Made by a program: the position numbers and the translations under genes
Source: an uncultured Pseudomonadales bacterium
GTDB taxonomy: Bacteria > Patescibacteriota > Microgenomatia > UBA1400 > CAYXSR01
Length of the DNA stretch: 64,000 nt
Direction of reading: 5' to 3'
Assembly (NCBI GenBank): GCA_964430265.1
Contig: CAYSEI010000001.1
Coordinates: 318,987-382,986, forward strand
Notes under the pieces: generated by a model
What the model was told of the DNA's origin: nothing
The model's database searches: none
Seen by the model: only the letters and a program-made list of their open reading frames with translations
Shown: piece by piece, positions 2,716-63,380 of the stretch
Numbering within the stretch: the stretch's first letter is position 1
Layout: each line of letters begins with the position of its first letter

Positions 2716-3270
2716 ATGAGTAAATTTCTAAAGTCTATCGGACTATTTTTTTTGGATTTTATTGAGGTTTTAGTGACCTCATTTGCAATTTTTGTTGTTG
2801 TTTACCTGATTTTTTTTCAACCTCATAAGGTACGTGGTGTGTCAATGATGCCAAACTTTCAGGATAATGAGCATTTATTAACTGATAAAATAACCTATAG
2901 GTTTCGGAAACCTAAGAGGGGTGAAATTGTAATTTTTCGCTCTCCTACCAATGAAGACTATGATTATATAAAAAGGATAATCGGGCTTCCCGGGGAAAAA
3001 ATAAGTTTAGAAAACAATGAGATTTACATAGATAACAAAAAATTAAATGAGCCTTACTTAGATAAAAAAACTGAAGGAGGACAATTCCTTCAAAATGGTG
3101 AAACAATTGCTATACCGGAGAATCAATATTTTATGATAGGTGACAACCGTGATAAATCAAGTGATTCCAGATCATGGGGGTTTGTTCCGAAGGAAAACAT
3201 TATAGGAAAAGCTTGGTTCAGATATTGGCCTCCGCAAAGAGTTGGCTTTGTAAAAAATGCTGAATATTAA
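2716..3270 (+). CDS. lepB: Signal peptidase I
   Basis: N-terminal TM helix. Catalytic Ser region GVSMMPNF, KRIIGLPGE and GDNRDKSSDSR boxes. Confidence 0.85.
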   Translation: MSKFLKSIGLFFLDFIEVLVTSFAIFVVVYLIFFQPHKVRGVSMMPNFQDNEHLLTDKITYRFRKPKRGEIVIFRSPTNEDYDYIKRIIGLPGEKISLENNEIYIDNKKLNEPYLDKKTEGGQFLQNGETIAIPENQYFMIGDNRDKSSDSRSWGFVPKENIIGKAWFRYWPPQRVGFVKNAEY

Positions 3271-37656: not shown

Positions 37657-38582
37657 ATTTTTTCTGCTGCTCGTAATTTAGCACTTCTGGCGCGGTTGTT
37701 TTTAATAATTTCTTTCCTGTCAGCACGAACCGGTTTCTTTGTTAGTTCTTTTAACTCTTTTTCGTTTCTAAAAAACTGCTTGACGATTCTGTCCTCACCT
37801 TCATGAAAACTGATAACCACTAGTCTGCCTTCTTTTTTTAAAACCTCAACTGCCTGCGGTAAAGCTTTTTTTAAATTCTCAAGTTCTTTGTTTACATATA
37901 TTCTTAAAGCTTGAAATACTTTTGTTGCCGGGTGCAGTCTACCTCTTCTTTTGTGTTCTTGTTTATATACCCCTTTAATCAATTCAGCCAGTTGCCCGGT
38001 AGTTTTAATTGGTTGCTTTTCTCGCTCTCGAACAATAGCTTCAGCAATGGGCAAAGAAAGCTCTTCTCCGCCAAATTTAGCAAAAATTTCATAAAGATCC
38101 TCCTTGTTTAAATTATTAACAATCTCTTGGGCTGATCTACCCTGCTGCGGGTTCATCCGCATGTCCAAATCTGCGTCTTTGTTAAAGGAGAATCCCCGGT
38201 TTTTGGATTCTAGTTGATGGGAGGAGACCCCTAAATCAAAAAGGATTCCGTTGAATGTCTGCACATTCATTTGCTTGCTTTCTTCTTCTACTGCCTGCTT
38301 AAGCTCAGCAAAGTTAGCCTGCTTAATCAAATAAGAATTGGAATTATAGCTTTGGGATAAATGCTTTTTTGAATAAGCAACAGCTTCAGGATCTTGATCA
38401 ATCCCCAAAACCCTTCCTCCTTTATTTAGGATTGCAGTAGTGTGGCCTCCTCCACCAACTGTAGCGTCAAGGTAGTTATGTCCCGGCTTGACGTCTAAAT
38501 ATTGTAATGTCTCTTGTAATAATACTGGTGTGTGATAATCAGATGTTGATTTCAAGTTCTGTAATTCTTTCTGCGATTTCAT
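37653..38582 (-). CDS. rsmH: 16S rRNA (cytosine1402-N4)-methyltransferase RsmH/MraW; start probably ATG at 38580-38582
   Basis: HTPVLLQE and DATVGGGGHT are RsmH motifs. The track start at 38663 is a TTG that would overlap mraZ by 125 nt. Confidence 0.8.
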   Translation of the reverse strand: MKSQKELQNLKSTSDYHTPVLLQETLQYLDVKPGHNYLDATVGGGGHTTAILNKGGRVLGIDQDPEAVAYSKKHLSQSYNSNSYLIKQANFAELKQAVEEESKQMNVQTFNGILFDLGVSSHQLESKNRGFSFNKDADLDMRMNPQQGRSAQEIVNNLNKEDLYEIFAKFGGEELSLPIAEAIVREREKQPIKTTGQLAELIKGVYKQEHKRRGRLHPATKVFQALRIYVNKELENLKKALPQAVEVLKKEGRLVVISFHEGEDRIVKQFFRNEKELKELTKKPVRADRKEIIKNNRARSAKLRAAEKI

Positions 38583-38976
38583 CGCTGTCTTTTTCCAATC
38601 TATCCTGATATTTGTCAAATTTATTTCCATCCCAGATTTCAATTCTTTCCAAGCTTCCGGCAACTATTACTTTTTCACTTAATCCGGCAAAATTACGTAA
38701 AACCTCAGGAATCAAAATTCTTCCTTGGGCATCAAATTCCACTTCAAAAGCTTCATAACTTAAAAGTCTGACAAAAGAACGTGCATCACTGCTAGTTAAC
38801 GGTGTTTGATTAAGCTTGGAAGCAATCTCTTCCCACTTGGCTTTAGGAAATAAAAAGAGACAGCCGTCTAATCCTCTTGTGATTACAGCCGTCTTTGATA
38901 GATTTTTACGAAATTCTTTGGGAACTGCCATTCGGCCTTTAGTTCCTAAAGATCGTTTGTATATTCCAATAAACAT
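38539..38976 (-). CDS. mraZ: Transcriptional regulator MraZ
   Basis: MFIGIYKRSLGTKGRMAVPKEFR aligns with the MraZ N-terminus. Duplicated SpoVT/AbrB-like halves. Confidence 0.85.
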   Translation of the reverse strand: MFIGIYKRSLGTKGRMAVPKEFRKNLSKTAVITRGLDGCLFLFPKAKWEEIASKLNQTPLTSSDARSFVRLLSYEAFEVEFDAQGRILIPEVLRNFAGLSEKVIVAGSLERIEIWDGNKFDKYQDRLEKDSDEIAERITELEINI

Positions 38977-38981
38977 TTATT

Positions 38982-39008
38982 CCCCACTTTTCACCACTAC
39001 CTACCATT
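38982..39008 (-). promoter_or_regulatory. Putative MraZ operator: three TGGNN direct repeats at 10-bp spacing
   Basis: The minus strand reads TGGTAGGTAG TGGTGAAAAG TGGGGAATAA ATG, matching the MraZ DR consensus TGGGN phased by one helical turn. An upstream TTGACA lies at 39029-39034 (minus). Confidence 0.45.
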
Positions 39009-39128
39009 CTTATATATTTACACACGGTTGTCAAGGAGCAATTTAAGAGGAAATTTAGCAATTTCACCACTATGATATTTTTTGTGAAAATAATTAAAGA
39101 TTTTTTTGTTAAAAAGAAACAGAATAAT

Positions 39129-39157
39129 TTGCATGAAACTAAAAAATGGATTAAAAT
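39129..39157 (+). promoter_or_regulatory. Sigma70-type promoter for the plus-strand small-protein operon (TTGCAT-N17-TAAAAT)
   Basis: TTGCAT at 39129-39134 and TAAAAT at 39152-39157. It is divergent from the mraZ promoter. Confidence 0.55.
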
Positions 39158-39189
39158 AGTTTTAAGCTTCTGCCCGGAAAGGTAAACAA

Positions 39190-39420
39190 ATGTCAACATC
39201 TATTGGAGAGATTTTTAAAGAAACTTCAGTTGGTCAAGAATTTTATTTCACTTCAGCTCCCGATTCCCTATTTTTTATTAAAGACATACTTGAACGAGAC
39301 GGAGAAATCATTGGCTACCACATTGGAAGATATGAACAAAGTGGTATGCCAATTTATTTTTTAGGCAGATCAGTTGAATTTAAATGCGGACAAATTGATT
39401 TAATGGAAGAAATTATTTAA
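39190..39420 (+). CDS. Small acidic hypothetical protein A (76 aa)
   Basis: SD AAAGG 7 nt upstream of the ATG. No known motif. Paralogous to the next ORF (shared MS.T..EIF N-terminus and EQS.GM...DG...E.IDEE core). Confidence 0.5.
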   Translation: MSTSIGEIFKETSVGQEFYFTSAPDSLFFIKDILERDGEIIGYHIGRYEQSGMPIYFLGRSVEFKCGQIDLMEEII

Positions 39421-39448
39421 TAAAGTTGCCTATTTAGAAAGGAAATTT

Positions 39449-39685
39449 ATGTCACCAACAGCAAGAGAAATATTTAGCGATGCACTAGGAAAAGACGTTA
39501 AAGAAACAGTTGTTAACAGATGGACTGTTAAAAGTCTTCATTTGTTAGAGGGAGATCCGGAGAATCTAACAATTTTTTTGGTAAGAGAAACTAATGACGG
39601 TGAACAAAGCGTGGGTATGTTAAGAAGAATTGACGGTAATGATGTGTTTCCTGACGGTGTATTTGAAGTTATTGATGAAGAATAA
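39449..39685 (+). CDS. Small acidic hypothetical protein B (78 aa), paralog of A
   Basis: SD AAAGGA 7 nt upstream. Acidic, no TM segment or signal peptide. Confidence 0.5.
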   Translation: MSPTAREIFSDALGKDVKETVVNRWTVKSLHLLEGDPENLTIFLVRETNDGEQSVGMLRRIDGNDVFPDGVFEVIDEE

Positions 39686-39721
39686 TAAACAATTGTACGT
39701 GCAATCTGGGAGGTGTTTTAA

Positions 39722-39904
39722 ATGAATGAAAATATTAGTAACGAAGTTAATGCACAAGAGATATGTGATGAAATAGCTGACAATGTTATTGCCTTTCTTG
39801 GAGGAAAGATTGATAACGAAACCCGGGCAGAACGGGAAGCAGAACTATTAGATAGACTTGGAAAAGTTAGAAGTTTAGAAACTTGCGAACCAATAGATCT
39901 TTAA
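39722..39904 (+). CDS. Small acidic hypothetical protein C (60 aa, two Cys)
   Basis: Strong SD GGGAGGTG 6 nt upstream. Predicted helical and acidic. Confidence 0.5.
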   Translation: MNENISNEVNAQEICDEIADNVIAFLGGKIDNETRAEREAELLDRLGKVRSLETCEPIDL

Positions 39905-39913
39905 TTTATTTTT

Positions 39914-40741
39914 TTACCTAACTAAAATATAAGTAGTTAACATCTCAACTTCAGCTGTTATTGTAGTGTCTTCAGTATCAAATTCAAGCTTTTCCCATTC
40001 TTCTGTTTGATTGTTCCATGCATAAAGCTGTAAATTAGTTGTATCCTCTTTTGTTCTCATGGTTAAATTAGCCTCGTTGATTTCTGTACCACTTGGTGCA
40101 AAAAATGCATAAGGTCCTTCAACAATTTCTTTATCAATATTTCCGGGAAGACCTAAAGGATCAGCTACTATTATTGGTGTGTTAGCAGATACTTCATTTT
40201 GTGGTATCTCTAAGATTGCTTTGCTGTTTCTGGAAGTAAAAACACTGTCTTCATCAGCATATTTGCCGATTGTAAAATCTCCTTTTAAACTGTATTCCTC
40301 TACTCCGCCGGAAAAATGAATAAAATAGCTTCCTGCAGATACTCCAGTATCATATTTTTTTACTCCTTTTGATTGGGAGCAAAAACAAAATTCTTTTGGT
40401 TCTGTTGGGTTACTTGCTTTACTTAAATCAATTCTGCCAATCCCGCCTTGGATAATCGTTCCACCGGCATCATTAGCTGCTTGATATTCGATTTCGTATT
40501 CTGCCATTTGTGCTTGATAATTATTTAAGCTTAAAAAGATTTCTCCTCCGTTTGCTGAAGGGGTTAAACTTAAATATGGTCTTTCCTTTATCGCCTTGGT
40601 ATTGATGTTCTGCACTTGTCTTTTTTCTTCTGGCTGTTCAGTTTCTTCTACAGGCGCATTATTATTTCTAAATAAAAAGAAAGCACCAATACCTAATGCT
40701 AAAAGCAAAGATACAATTATTAAAATTTTATTTTTTTTCAT
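39914..40741 (-). CDS. Secreted/membrane-anchored hypothetical protein; start ATG 40739-40741
   Basis: MKKNKILIIVSLLLALGIGAFFLF is a signal/anchor sequence. SD AAGGAG 5 nt upstream. The track start is an upstream TTG. Confidence 0.55.
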   Translation of the reverse strand: MKKNKILIIVSLLLALGIGAFFLFRNNNAPVEETEQPEEKRQVQNINTKAIKERPYLSLTPSANGGEIFLSLNNYQAQMAEYEIEYQAANDAGGTIIQGGIGRIDLSKASNPTEPKEFCFCSQSKGVKKYDTGVSAGSYFIHFSGGVEEYSLKGDFTIGKYADEDSVFTSRNSKAILEIPQNEVSANTPIIVADPLGLPGNIDKEIVEGPYAFFAPSGTEINEANLTMRTKEDTTNLQLYAWNNQTEEWEKLEFDTEDTTITAEVEMLTTYILVR

Positions 40742-61580: not shown

Positions 61581-61689
61581 TATATGTATTTTAGCAGAAT
61601 GAGGTAAGAGAAGAAAATATCTGTATATAGGTAAACTATAGTCCGAATGGTACTTACACTAGCAGCTATGATTTTGACCAATGTCTTTC

Positions 61690-61723
61690 TTGACTTATTA
61701 TCTGACATCCGATATCATATATC
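61690..61723 (+). promoter_or_regulatory. vapB promoter (TTGACT-N17-TATCAT) overlapping the palindrome GATATcatATATC
   Basis: TTGACT at 61690-61695, TATCAT at 61713-61718. The inverted repeat at 61711-61723 overlaps the -10 element, consistent with autoregulation. Confidence 0.45.
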
Positions 61724-61746
61724 TGATATTAAGTTTACACACTAAA

Positions 61747-62013
61747 ATGAAAGCAACAATAAATATCCGTCCAAGAAGACAAGTTACTTTACCCAAAGAA
61801 ATCCTTGAAGAATTATCCCTTTCTGTCGGAGATAAAATTCAAATAGAAGTAAAAAACAATAAATTAATAGGTAAACCTATTATCGATTATACATTAGATA
61901 ATATTGAAACTATTCAAAACGTCCTCCAAGATGCTGATATTTCTGAAAAAGAACTTCAAGAAAGCGGGAAGAAAATACGCGAAAAACTTGTAAAAGAAAA
62001 ATATGAAAAGTAA
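61747..62013 (+). CDS. vapB: AbrB/MazE-fold antitoxin (VapB-like); start moved to ATG at 61747
   Basis: MKATINIRPRRQVTLPKEILEEL is a SpoVT/AbrB swapped-hairpin motif. The track N-terminus is a hydrophobic read-through of the promoter. Confidence 0.6.
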   Translation: MKATINIRPRRQVTLPKEILEELSLSVGDKIQIEVKNNKLIGKPIIDYTLDNIETIQNVLQDADISEKELQESGKKIREKLVKEKYEK

Positions 62014-62422
62014 TTTTTTTATTGATTCAAATGTTTGGTTTTCTGTTTTTTATTCAAAAGGAAACTGCTATAAATTAATAAAAAAGCTTTTAGAACACAA
62101 CAAAGAAATTGTAGTTTCAAAATTAGTGATTGAGGAGACATTTAGAAATATATATAAAAAAGTTCCTCAGGCACTCCCAGCACTTAATAATTTCTTTTGT
62201 TCTGCTCCGATCACAATATTAGAAAACCCAGAAAAAAAACAATTAAATAGTAATCTGAAATTGGCAGACAAAAAAGACTTGCCTATTATTTTATCTGCAA
62301 TAAATTACAATTGTGATTATTTAGTAACTAGAAATGTAAAAGATTTTAATTTAAAAAACATTAAGAATAAAATAAAAATATTAACACCACAACAAGCTTT
62401 ATCTTTAAGTTTTGAATCATAA
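62003..62422 (+). CDS. vapC: PIN-domain toxin (VapC-like)
   Basis: FFIDSNVWF N-terminal PIN acidic motif. It overlaps vapB by 11 nt. Confidence 0.65.
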   Translation: MKSNFFIDSNVWFSVFYSKGNCYKLIKKLLEHNKEIVVSKLVIEETFRNIYKKVPQALPALNNFFCSAPITILENPEKKQLNSNLKLADKKDLPIILSAINYNCDYLVTRNVKDFNLKNIKNKIKILTPQQALSLSFES

Positions 62423-62471
62423 ATCAACTTTTTCTCTTTTTTACACTTACAAACTTTCAATCTTGTAACAT

Positions 62472-62499
62472 ATATCTATATTTTTGACCGTATAGATAT
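62472..62499 (+). promoter_or_regulatory. 9-bp perfect inverted repeat ATATCTATA-N10-TATAGATAT upstream of the PP-loop gene
   Basis: Seen directly. TTGACC at 62484-62489 sits inside the spacer. A likely operator. Confidence 0.4.
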
Positions 62500-62519
62500 T
62501 TTTCTGTTAGACTAAATTT

Positions 62520-63380
62520 ATGATATTTAAACGCAATAAAATCAAGTTCAAAAATATTCAGCCCGAACAAAGAAAAAAATATCAAAGCTATTCTTTGGAC
62601 AAAAAAATATCTCTTGCAGAAAAAGTAATTAAAAAAGGGTTGAAAAGATTTAAAGCAAATAATTCTGCTGTTGCCTGGACAGGCGGAAAAGACTCTACTC
62701 TGCTTCTCTGGCTTGTAAATAAAGTTTGTGAAGAAGATAGACTTCAGCTGCCAAAAGTTATGTTTGTTGATGAAGGAGATGTGTTTGATGAGATATTAGA
62801 ATTTGTTCATAAAATCAAACAGGAGTGGAAGCTTGATTTTAATACAGCACATAATAAGGATGTATCTTCAAAAGCAAAAAAAATTGGGGACCTTGTAAAG
62901 GTTAAGGATTTAAATGATAGAAATAAAAAGGAGTTAAAAAGGCTTGGATTTGAAAAAAAGGAATTTCCTTACCTGCCTGAATCATTTGTTGGCAACCATT
63001 TAATGAAAACAGTTGCCACCAATATCTGGATTGAAAAAAATGCTATTAAAGCTTTATTTACCGGTGTGCGCTGGGATGAACAAGAAGCAAGAAGTGAAGA
63101 TGATTTTATCCGTAAAATGGATAATCCTACTCATTTCAGAGTTGAGCCAATACTTCATTTTTTTGAAAAAGATGTTTGGGAGGCAACGCATAAAAATAAA
63201 ATCCCCTATATTTCTTTGTATAAAGATGGCTACCGCTCTTTAGGAGCAAAATCAACCACAAAAAAAACAGGAGATAAACCTGCCTGGGAGCAGAATATGG
63301 AAGAAATAAAAGAGAGGGCTGGAAGACAGCAGGATAAAGAAAAGATCATGCAGCGCTTAAGAGAACTTGGATATATGTAA
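62520..63380 (+). CDS. PAPS-reductase-family PP-loop ATP pyrophosphatase-like protein (no catalytic Cys)
   Basis: SAVAWTGGKDSTLLLWLV (PP-loop), VMFVDEGDVF, GVRWDEQEARSED and LYKDGYRSLGA match the PAPS-reductase/CysD fold. The C-terminal ECG(L/I)H Cys is absent. Confidence 0.65.
   Translation: MIFKRNKIKFKNIQPEQRKKYQSYSLDKKISLAEKVIKKGLKRFKANNSAVAWTGGKDSTLLLWLVNKVCEEDRLQLPKVMFVDEGDVFDEILEFVHKIKQEWKLDFNTAHNKDVSSKAKKIGDLVKVKDLNDRNKKELKRLGFEKKEFPYLPESFVGNHLMKTVATNIWIEKNAIKALFTGVRWDEQEARSEDDFIRKMDNPTHFRVEPILHFFEKDVWEATHKNKIPYISLYKDGYRSLGAKSTTKKTGDKPAWEQNMEEIKERAGRQQDKEKIMQRLRELGYM

Follow-up and report, generated by a model that had tools for sequence, protein, structure and literature searches.

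What are three small genes doing on the plus strand, between the gene for a secreted protein and mraZ, in a region that is otherwise read from the minus strand? The region is a 64-kb stretch of contig CAYSEI010000001.1, referred to here at its full length as the window, and the three genes, designated o1, o2, and o3 and collectively the cassette, had been described in a first-pass annotation of the sequence as a divergent operon of small acidic proteins. The evidence below makes it very probable that o1 to o3 form a genuine operon for three small acidic proteins of the cytosol, confined to one shallow lineage and carried as accessory cargo in a variable slot. The cassette would be an insert of ∼0.8 kb that lies in the opposite orientation between a recO-glyS-sec282 run, which ends with the secreted-protein gene (sec282), and the promoter and operator of mraZ. 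This type of cassette, in which orphan genes form the accessory cargo of a hypervariable slot, is familiar; what appears to be new is a set of three protein families without known relatives.

A plus-strand coding island of three small genes

Open reading frames (ORFs) encoding 76, 78, and 60 amino acids (aa) were found on the plus strand where the first-pass annotation had placed them, amid minus-strand genes that span ∼3.3 to 61.6 kb. Within that span, they are the sole convincing plus-strand coding island. The claim that every gene has a good Shine-Dalgarno (SD) sequence also held: all three sites were read directly from the sequence, each is purine rich, and the spacing to the ATG is 5 to 7 nucleotides (nt). 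The products are strongly acidic, as annotated, with isoelectric points (pI) of 4.16 to 4.41. No hydrophobic 19-residue stretch that could form a transmembrane helix or signal peptide is present in o1, o2, or o3, for which the maximum Kyte-Doolittle value in a 19-residue window is ≤0.6, versus 2.92 for the adjoining sec282 (275 aa, secreted or anchored). The cassette runs divergent to the mraZ promoter and operator and convergent with sec282, and both the orientation and the 9-nt gap between the stop codons of o3 and sec282 agree with the head-to-head and converging arrangement described previously. The GC content of the cassette segment (31 to 36%) equals that of its flanks, in a window that averages 33.5%, and the GC skew turns positive across the cassette, as plus-strand coding predicts. 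Elsewhere in the window, the only other plus-strand ORFs of at least 100 aa without a longer minus-strand shadow are at 2716-3270 and 61681-63380.

Codon usage and selection on o1, o2, and o3

Coding potential was scored with a codon log-likelihood model, for which 45 long ORFs of the window served as the training set, and the cassette genes were compared with 76-codon chunks. The in-frame scores per codon were 0.38 for o1, 0.53 for o2, and 0.45 for o3; chunks of real genes had a mean of 0.29 (standard deviation, 0.12), and wrong-frame chunks had a mean of −0.70. The cassette scores were reached by 0% of the wrong-frame chunks, and every alternative frame of the cassette ORFs (five per ORF) scored negative.

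Orthologs were found in a sister population represented by two short Logan contigs, L006 and L004, both from sample SRR15425353 and possibly from different strains. L006 carries rsmH, mraZ, the intergenic region, an o1 ortholog (92% identity), and the beginning of o2. On L004 are the final 54 codons of o2 and orthologs of o3 (designated P0004; 85% identity) and of sec282 (83% identity). The SD of o3 is kept in L004 as AAGGAGG despite sequence change. Nonsynonymous and synonymous divergence (pN and pS) between the window and the sister contigs was estimated from Nei-Gojobori counts. Nonsynonymous changes fell below the neutral expectation in o1 (pN, 0.039; pS, 0.129; 13 substitutions; binomial P = 0.03) and in o3 (pN, 0.092; pS, 0.270; 23 substitutions; binomial P = 0.009), and by these counts both genes show mild purifying selection. 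The rates of o1 match those of mraZ and rsmH (pN, 0.034; pS, 0.17) on the same contig, L006 (P = 0.18). An apparent shortage of synonymous divergence in o1 (Fisher P = 8.5e-6) was withdrawn, as that test had pooled L004 with L006; the comparison within its own contig is the one that gives P = 0.18.

Because their codon usage, SD sites, sister orthologs, and, for o1 and o3, nonsynonymous deficits point the same way, we conclude that o1, o2, and o3 are, judging from sequence, real protein-coding genes with native codon usage. The suggestion that o2 and o3 are pieces of one broken gene was considered and rejected. The two share a frame, but each has a separate SD and ATG, and the relative carries an insertion between them whose length (50 bp) is not a multiple of 3. 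This insertion lies at positions 166-215 of L004. The spacers of the cassette are indel prone in the sister population, and the ORFs remain intact.

The sec282-mraZ interval as a variable accessory slot

Relatives of the locus were fetched with MraZ and then sec282 as anchors, giving 3 genome and 49 metagenome loci, all resembling the candidate phyla radiation (CPR). The only informatively labeled relative genome is a Candidatus Collierbacteria metagenome-assembled genome (MAG), and the CPR/Microgenomates-like placement rests on gene order and that labeled relative, not on marker-gene phylogeny. The co-directional order recO-glyS-sec282-(gap)-mraZ-rsmH is kept in all fetched relative loci. Beyond the sister population, relatives of o1 to o3 are encoded in none of the fetched loci, and the cassette is absent from 31/31 related loci in which mraZ adjoins sec282. 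The first-pass annotation had named conservation in related genomes as one of the tests on which its proposal could fail, and the outcome is divided: the trio is kept in the sister population and absent from every more distant relative.

Across the clade, the gap between sec282 and mraZ ranges from 149 to 2091 bp. It is ≤190 bp in 13 of the 31 loci, 285 to 500 bp in 7, and >700 bp in 11. The cargo found in this position is diverse (Table 1) and includes an IS200-like Y1 transposase, GIY-YIG nucleases, a SocA/Panacea antitoxin with a partner, and HAD hydrolases, along with small acidic orphans encoded on the opposite strand. Since the flanks are conserved and the gap in relatives is often empty or holds unrelated cargo, the cassette is interpreted as a slot insert. 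By this comparison, the sec282-mraZ intergenic region is a variable accessory slot and the cassette a lineage-specific insert of ∼0.8 kb; conserved flanks, presence or absence of an insert, and differing content are all found here. The proposal of an accessory module thus fits the relatives, which lack the cassette and whose equivalent slot holds accessory or mobile cargo. The slot would be a handy place to seek accessory or defense functions in unculturable organisms.

The resemblance to ORFan cargo in hypervariable slots, such as genomic islets and integration hotspots, lies in the conserved flanks (∼50 loci), in a slot that is empty or holds unrelated cargo, and in the confinement of the cassette to two closely related populations. 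The cassette differs from such islets in its native composition and in its borders, where no target duplication, convincing terminal repeat, tRNA, integrase, transposase, or other recombinase was found. An inverted pair that brackets the cassette (39087-39110 and 39888-39911; 24 nt, 79% complementary) was dismissed as chance: 36 such pairs occur within 1.5 kb of this AT-rich sequence, and L006 does not preserve the left arm.

Because the slot takes unrelated cargo and the cassette is missing from all 31 loci, the adjacency to mraZ is regarded as positional, an effect of the insertion hotspot. The link to division raised as a speculation in the first-pass annotation is not supported. The convergence on sec282 likewise appears incidental; the comparison indicates no conserved partnership with MraZ or sec282, and nothing ties the cassette products to either in function.

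Two of the fetched sequences carry titles at odds with their content. L001 (CAYNMC010000029.1) is titled uncultured Pseudomonadales and L002 (DATLAM010000062.1) Candidatus Bathyarchaeia; both are probably mis-binned or mislabeled, given that their gene order and protein similarity fit the CPR-like window and the Collierbacteria MAG.

Rapid protein evolution of o2

The second gene of the cassette departs from the slow pattern of the other two. On L004, pN and pS are 0.343 and 0.386 for o2, 0.092 and 0.270 for o3, and 0.094 and 0.526 for sec282. The nonsynonymous rate of o2 is thus ∼3.6-fold that of o3 and sec282 combined on the same contig (0.343 versus 0.094; Fisher P = 4e-12), and the synonymous rates are indistinguishable (P = 0.36). 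The pN/pS ratio of o2 is ∼0.9, as measured on a single partial second allele (the last 54 codons). The possibility that L004 and L006 represent different strains leaves this rate result unaffected, as o2, o3, and sec282 are all on L004. The sister assembly breaks within o2, between the start held by L006 and the remainder on L004, and the break could reflect several alleles in the sister sample.

The divergence clusters in codons 22 to 66 and includes an in-frame indel of 3 codons (9 nt). The frame is intact through this indel and through 35% nucleotide divergence. The last 12 codons, VFPDGVFEV-x-D-x-E, are invariant, as is a scattered core of W25, H31, EGD34-36, LT40-41, LVRE44-47, and DG50-51. 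The comparison has accordingly shown, within the reach of these two alleles, an o2 protein that changes at a nearly neutral or diversifying rate and keeps a short core and a C-terminal motif. Diversifying selection on a binding surface and relaxed constraint would fit the ratio of ∼0.9 equally well. In either case, o2 shows cleanly, within one contig, a small protein that evolves ∼3.6 times faster than its neighbors and retains an invariant motif.

Homology and structure of the cassette proteins

The first-pass annotation recognized no motif in the three proteins, and none of them has an accepted family match. A word-indexed search of 5.8 billion clusters with o1, o2, and o3 returned only the proteins themselves and their sister orthologs. 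When o1 was searched exhaustively with phmmer against 1.84 billion sequences that represent 15 billion proteins, the matches were o1 itself and two artifacts driven by repeats. One artifact is a eukaryotic P450 that contains a tandem array of YDTSVGKKV; the other is a protein whose tandem FTIAPDSCYVVADVLVDG-type repeats presumably recall the InlB-B-repeat domain. Pfam, PHROGs, NCBIfam, and PADLOC gave nothing for o1 or o2; NCBIfam and PADLOC gave nothing for o3, and PHROGs gave no match with a function for the cassette. The PDB sequence searches with o1 to o3 were also empty, as were IMG/VR scans and tblastn searches of GenBank phages and PLSDB plasmids with the cassette, a scan of JGI metagenomes with the o1 alignment, and a phmmer search of o1 to o3 against all ORFs of the 52 related loci.

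One family did approach o3. Residues 12 to 46 of o3 match the Pfam gas-vesicle family GvpG (PF05120) at 23.9 bits, and P0004 matches it at 24.4 bits (E ∼4e-5 for each), over a 35-residue helix rich in E, R, and L. The match covers only model positions 31 to 65 of 67, that is, the C-terminal half of GvpG, and both scores are under the 30.6-bit gathering cutoff; the assignment was rejected. Gas-vesicle context is also lacking, for the ORFs read in the 64-kb window include no further apparent gvp gene. Judged by its sequence, o3 is probably a helical hairpin.

The first two proteins had been called clear paralogs in the first-pass annotation, a claim that did not survive. BLASTP gave no alignment of o1 with o2 at E ≤ 100, tblastn of o1 against the window found only o1 itself (no cassette paralogs are present there, and o2 was not retrieved), and hhalign of the two-sequence families returned a probability of 0.5%. 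What they have in common is a pair of patches, the N-terminal M-S-x-[ST]-x-x-E-I-F and EQS(V)GM, and a free-end global alignment that exceeds shuffled sequences at z = 2.3 (P ∼0.03). The low-confidence AlphaFold2 (AF2) models of both proteins start with an N-terminal helix followed by a β-meander and fall into different generic fold classes. Among known domains, the closest include small β-barrels (SH3/Tudor/FeoA-like) and NTF2/cystatin/LolA-like α+β domains. A Gp25/IraD-like viral fold for o2 was set aside, as an E value of 0.06 to 0.1 from a model with a predicted local distance difference test (pLDDT) score of 61 is not meaningful. As far as these comparisons reach, o1, o2, and o3 appear to be unrelated to each other, each a new singleton family, and activity for any of them, if shown, would define new protein families.

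Promoter and transcript ends

The near-consensus promoter annotated upstream of o1 is real in part. The two hexamers and their N17 spacing are present (Table 1), but the −35 hexamer agrees with TTGACA at 3/6 positions only, and promoter-like sites are not enriched in the cassette region (6 found versus 8.6 expected in shuffled sequence). In the promoter scan, the overlapping TTTGCA-N18-TAAAAT scored 9/12 matches. In favor of the promoter, both hexamers are invariant in L006 despite changed flanking bases and a 20-bp indel; the latter is an insertion at positions 1540-1560 of that contig, immediately upstream of the cassette −35. Downstream of o3, the terminator scan found no terminator on either strand, RNA folds at the o3-sec282 junction were no better than shuffles on either strand, and Rfam reported no RNA family over positions 38800-40100. 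Two relatives with an empty slot, L028 and L037, have a hairpin and a run of T residues after sec282, followed by the mraZ promoter.

Possible roles of the cassette and competing explanations

Small binders that combine fast protein change with an invariant motif are often involved in molecular conflict. Because of the size, charge, and operon form of o1 to o3, the company found in the slot elsewhere, the rate of o2, and the fact that the clade can dispense with the cassette, it may be tentatively proposed that o1 to o3 bind or inhibit their targets stoichiometrically, as small proteins with a role in conflict (immunity, antitoxin-like, or anti-defense). Specificity would then be determined by o2, with o1 and o3 as conserved partners. 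The sole positive hint of an immunity or antitoxin function is the fast protein evolution of o2. A more specific version, rather unlikely in our estimation, holds that the cassette is a conflict module of CPR bacteria not described before, made up of three small proteins (e.g., an immunity or anti-defense set), that it is carried in a recombination hotspot upstream of mraZ which serves these tiny genomes as an accessory or defense islet, and that o2 is a diversifying specificity subunit recognized through a variable β-sheet surface, with o1 and o3 as its conserved partners.

The known systems closest to such a role are orphan immunity or antitoxin clusters and anti-defense operons, such as those of anti-CRISPRs. 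The cassette resembles these in its compact form, its candidate promoter of its own, its acidic cytosolic products of 60 to 78 aa, and its one member with a fast-evolving protein; the slot in L033 and L034, in turn, holds a SocA/Panacea antitoxin pair. Unlike these systems, it lacks a cognate toxin and a helix-turn-helix (HTH; Aca-like) regulator, and its context is neither a prophage nor another mobile element. For type II or tripartite toxin-antitoxin systems, no toxin or antitoxin domain was found in o1 to o3 with Pfam, NCBIfam, or PADLOC, and the usual pairing of an acidic antitoxin with a basic toxin contrasts with the cassette, whose products are all acidic (pI, 4.2 to 4.4). For an anti-CRISPR or anti-defense operon, there are no adjoining mobile genes, no phage or plasmid relatives, and no basic or HTH-like ORF in the cassette. 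For a polymorphic-toxin immunity cluster, no toxin adjoins; the neighbors are mraZ and sec282, and the latter is conserved with or without the cassette. The searches also gave no homologs that would connect o1 to o3 with known immunity genes, and the excess of nonsynonymous change in o2 could come from the diversification expected of an immunity protein or from relaxed constraint.

Several observations weigh against reading the cassette as conflict cargo. No toxin, nuclease, defense, or mobile gene adjoins it in this genome, and all three products are acidic, without the basic partner typical of toxin-antitoxin pairs. A pN/pS near 1 for o2 would be expected equally from relaxed constraint, and it comes from one partial second allele, in a sister sample whose two contigs may derive from different strains. 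The composition and codon usage of the cassette are fully native and bear no mark of recent transfer. CPR genomes are also rich in orphan genes, so that an orphan trio is not unexpected.

The most serious competing explanation takes o1 to o3 as taxonomically restricted genes of an ordinary sort that have a cellular role outside conflict (for example, as small adaptors, chaperone-like proteins, or regulatory partners) and happen to lie in a recombination-prone slot, with o2 under relaxed constraint. We regard this as a possible but doubtful account. It draws on the native codon usage and GC content, on an o1 that is as slow as rsmH and mraZ, on the lack of adjoining mobile or defense genes in the window, and on the o2 ratio, which suits relaxation as well as diversification. 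It sits less easily with the absence of the cassette beyond the sister population, which makes it dispensable for the clade, with a slot that elsewhere holds transposase, GIY-YIG, and antitoxin-type cargo, and with an o2 that, at 50% divergence, still has an unbroken frame, sound codon usage, and an unchanged motif, all of which oppose simple decay. If o1 to o3 are merely orphan cargo, they are another of many lineage-specific small gene sets of CPR bacteria, with little wider consequence. That the ORFs are nonfunctional, chance or decaying frames in inserted DNA that the sister population has kept for lack of time, is very unlikely. The carriers are two populations only, the substitutions in o1 and o3 are few, the promoter is statistically unremarkable, and no terminator was found. 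Yet no wrong-frame sequence from this genome attains the codon scores of the cassette, the three SD sites are correctly spaced, with that of o3 retained through change in L004, and the nonsynonymous deficit in o1 and o3 and the persistence of the o2 frame through nucleotide divergence and a 9-nt indel both speak for genes.

Two narrower proposals fare worse. The cassette could encode small regulators of division or of MraZ, for example, acidic DNA mimics that titrate MraZ, co-regulated through the shared divergent region. Its head-to-head placement with the mraZ promoter and operator is in favor of this, together with the strong acidity, which would be compatible with DNA mimicry, and an additional TTTCACCACTA operator core that lies between the two promoters and is seen only in the cassette-bearing genomes (the window and L006). 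The proposal is nonetheless highly improbable: none of the 31 sec282-mraZ loci has the cassette, the slot cargo is unrelated, the extra TTTCACCACTA lies ∼57 bp upstream of the cassette −35 without overlapping it, and Pfam, NCBIfam, PDB, and fold comparisons revealed no similarity to a known division protein or DNA mimic. The other proposal, that o1 and o2 are a duplicated pair and o3 a GvpG-family gas-vesicle accessory protein, is barely credible. The shared patches, the marginal global alignment, the similar helix-and-meander layout of the two models, and the match of o3 and P0004 to GvpG over the same residues are outweighed by the lack of any BLASTP alignment, the negligible hhalign probability, GvpG scores short of the cutoff, the empty NCBIfam search, and the lack of another apparent gvp gene in the ORFs read for the window. 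Accessory cargo in a variable slot remains the reading that we favor for the cassette.

Neighboring genes

The mraZ promoter and the TGG units of the MraZ operator, which are in an exact 10-nt phase (Table 1), are conserved in six relatives (L001, L002, L015, L021, L028, and L037), although the MraZ proteins are only 38 to 63% identical. PMC8475190 quotes the MraZ box of Mollicutes as AAAGTG[T/G], which the AAAGTGG unit in this array fits. Judged by conservation and phasing, the TGG units constitute, for CPR-like bacteria, a phylogenetic footprint of the MraZ operator.

On the other side of the slot, sec282 has homologs in the same position, after glyS and before mraZ, in ∼50 loci (L001 to L003 and L007 to L055), with 23 to 39% identity. 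Their invariant residues include RPY, EYE-x-x-Y, and GLP...GPY. Neither Pfam nor NCBIfam gave a match for sec282, which is, by its sequence features and distribution, a presumptive envelope protein, uncharacterized and specific to the clade.

Table 1. Features of the cassette, its neighbors, and the cargo of the equivalent slot in relatives. Coordinates are those of the window unless a locus is named.
Feature	Position	Strand	Description
Candidate sigma-70-type promoter	39129-39157	+	TTGCAT 39129-39134, N17, TAAAAT 39152-39157
o1	39190-39420	+	76 aa; pI 4.41; net charge −7; SD GGAAAGG at 39176-39182
o2	39449-39685	+	78 aa; pI 4.39; net charge −9; SD AGAAAGGA at 39436-39443; fast-evolving, with conserved C-terminal VFPDGVFEV
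o3	39722-39904	+	60 aa; pI 4.16; net charge −9; SD GGGAGGTG at 39708-39715
Spacer, o3 stop to convergent sec282 stop	39905-39913		9 nt
sec282	39914-40741	−	275 aa; signal-anchored or secreted; right-hand border of the slot; ends the recO-glyS-sec282 run
Second TTTCACCACTA operator-core copy	39062-39072		Exact; 73 nt upstream of the first copy; between the divergent promoters
mraZ promoter	39034-39006	−	TTGACA 39034-39029, N17, AAGAAT 39011-39006; context, not part of the cassette
MraZ operator	39006-38984	−	TGG at 39006-39004, 38996-38994, and 38986-38984; exact 10-nt phase; includes AAAGTGG
Slot cargo, IS200-like Y1 transposase	L019 4709-5374
Slot cargo, GIY-YIG nucleases	L025 4972-5262; L048 1338-1721
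Slot cargo, SocA/Panacea antitoxin and partner	L033 1718-2652; also L034
Slot cargo, HAD hydrolases	L003, L035, L036, L039
Slot cargo, two dehydrogenase-sized genes	L007, L010
Slot cargo, small acidic orphan	L032 4795-5016	Opposite	73 aa; pI 4.6
Slot cargo, small acidic orphan	L027 4861-5208	Opposite	115 aa; pI 4.9

The start of rsmH, the gene that follows mraZ, differs between calls. The longest rsmH ORF of the window begins with a TTG at 38663 and shares ∼125 nt (38539-38663) with the 3′ end of mraZ. The call in the sister genome begins at an internal MKS... codon (∼38582 in the window), with an overlap of ∼44 nt, and the real start of rsmH is probably this internal ATG.

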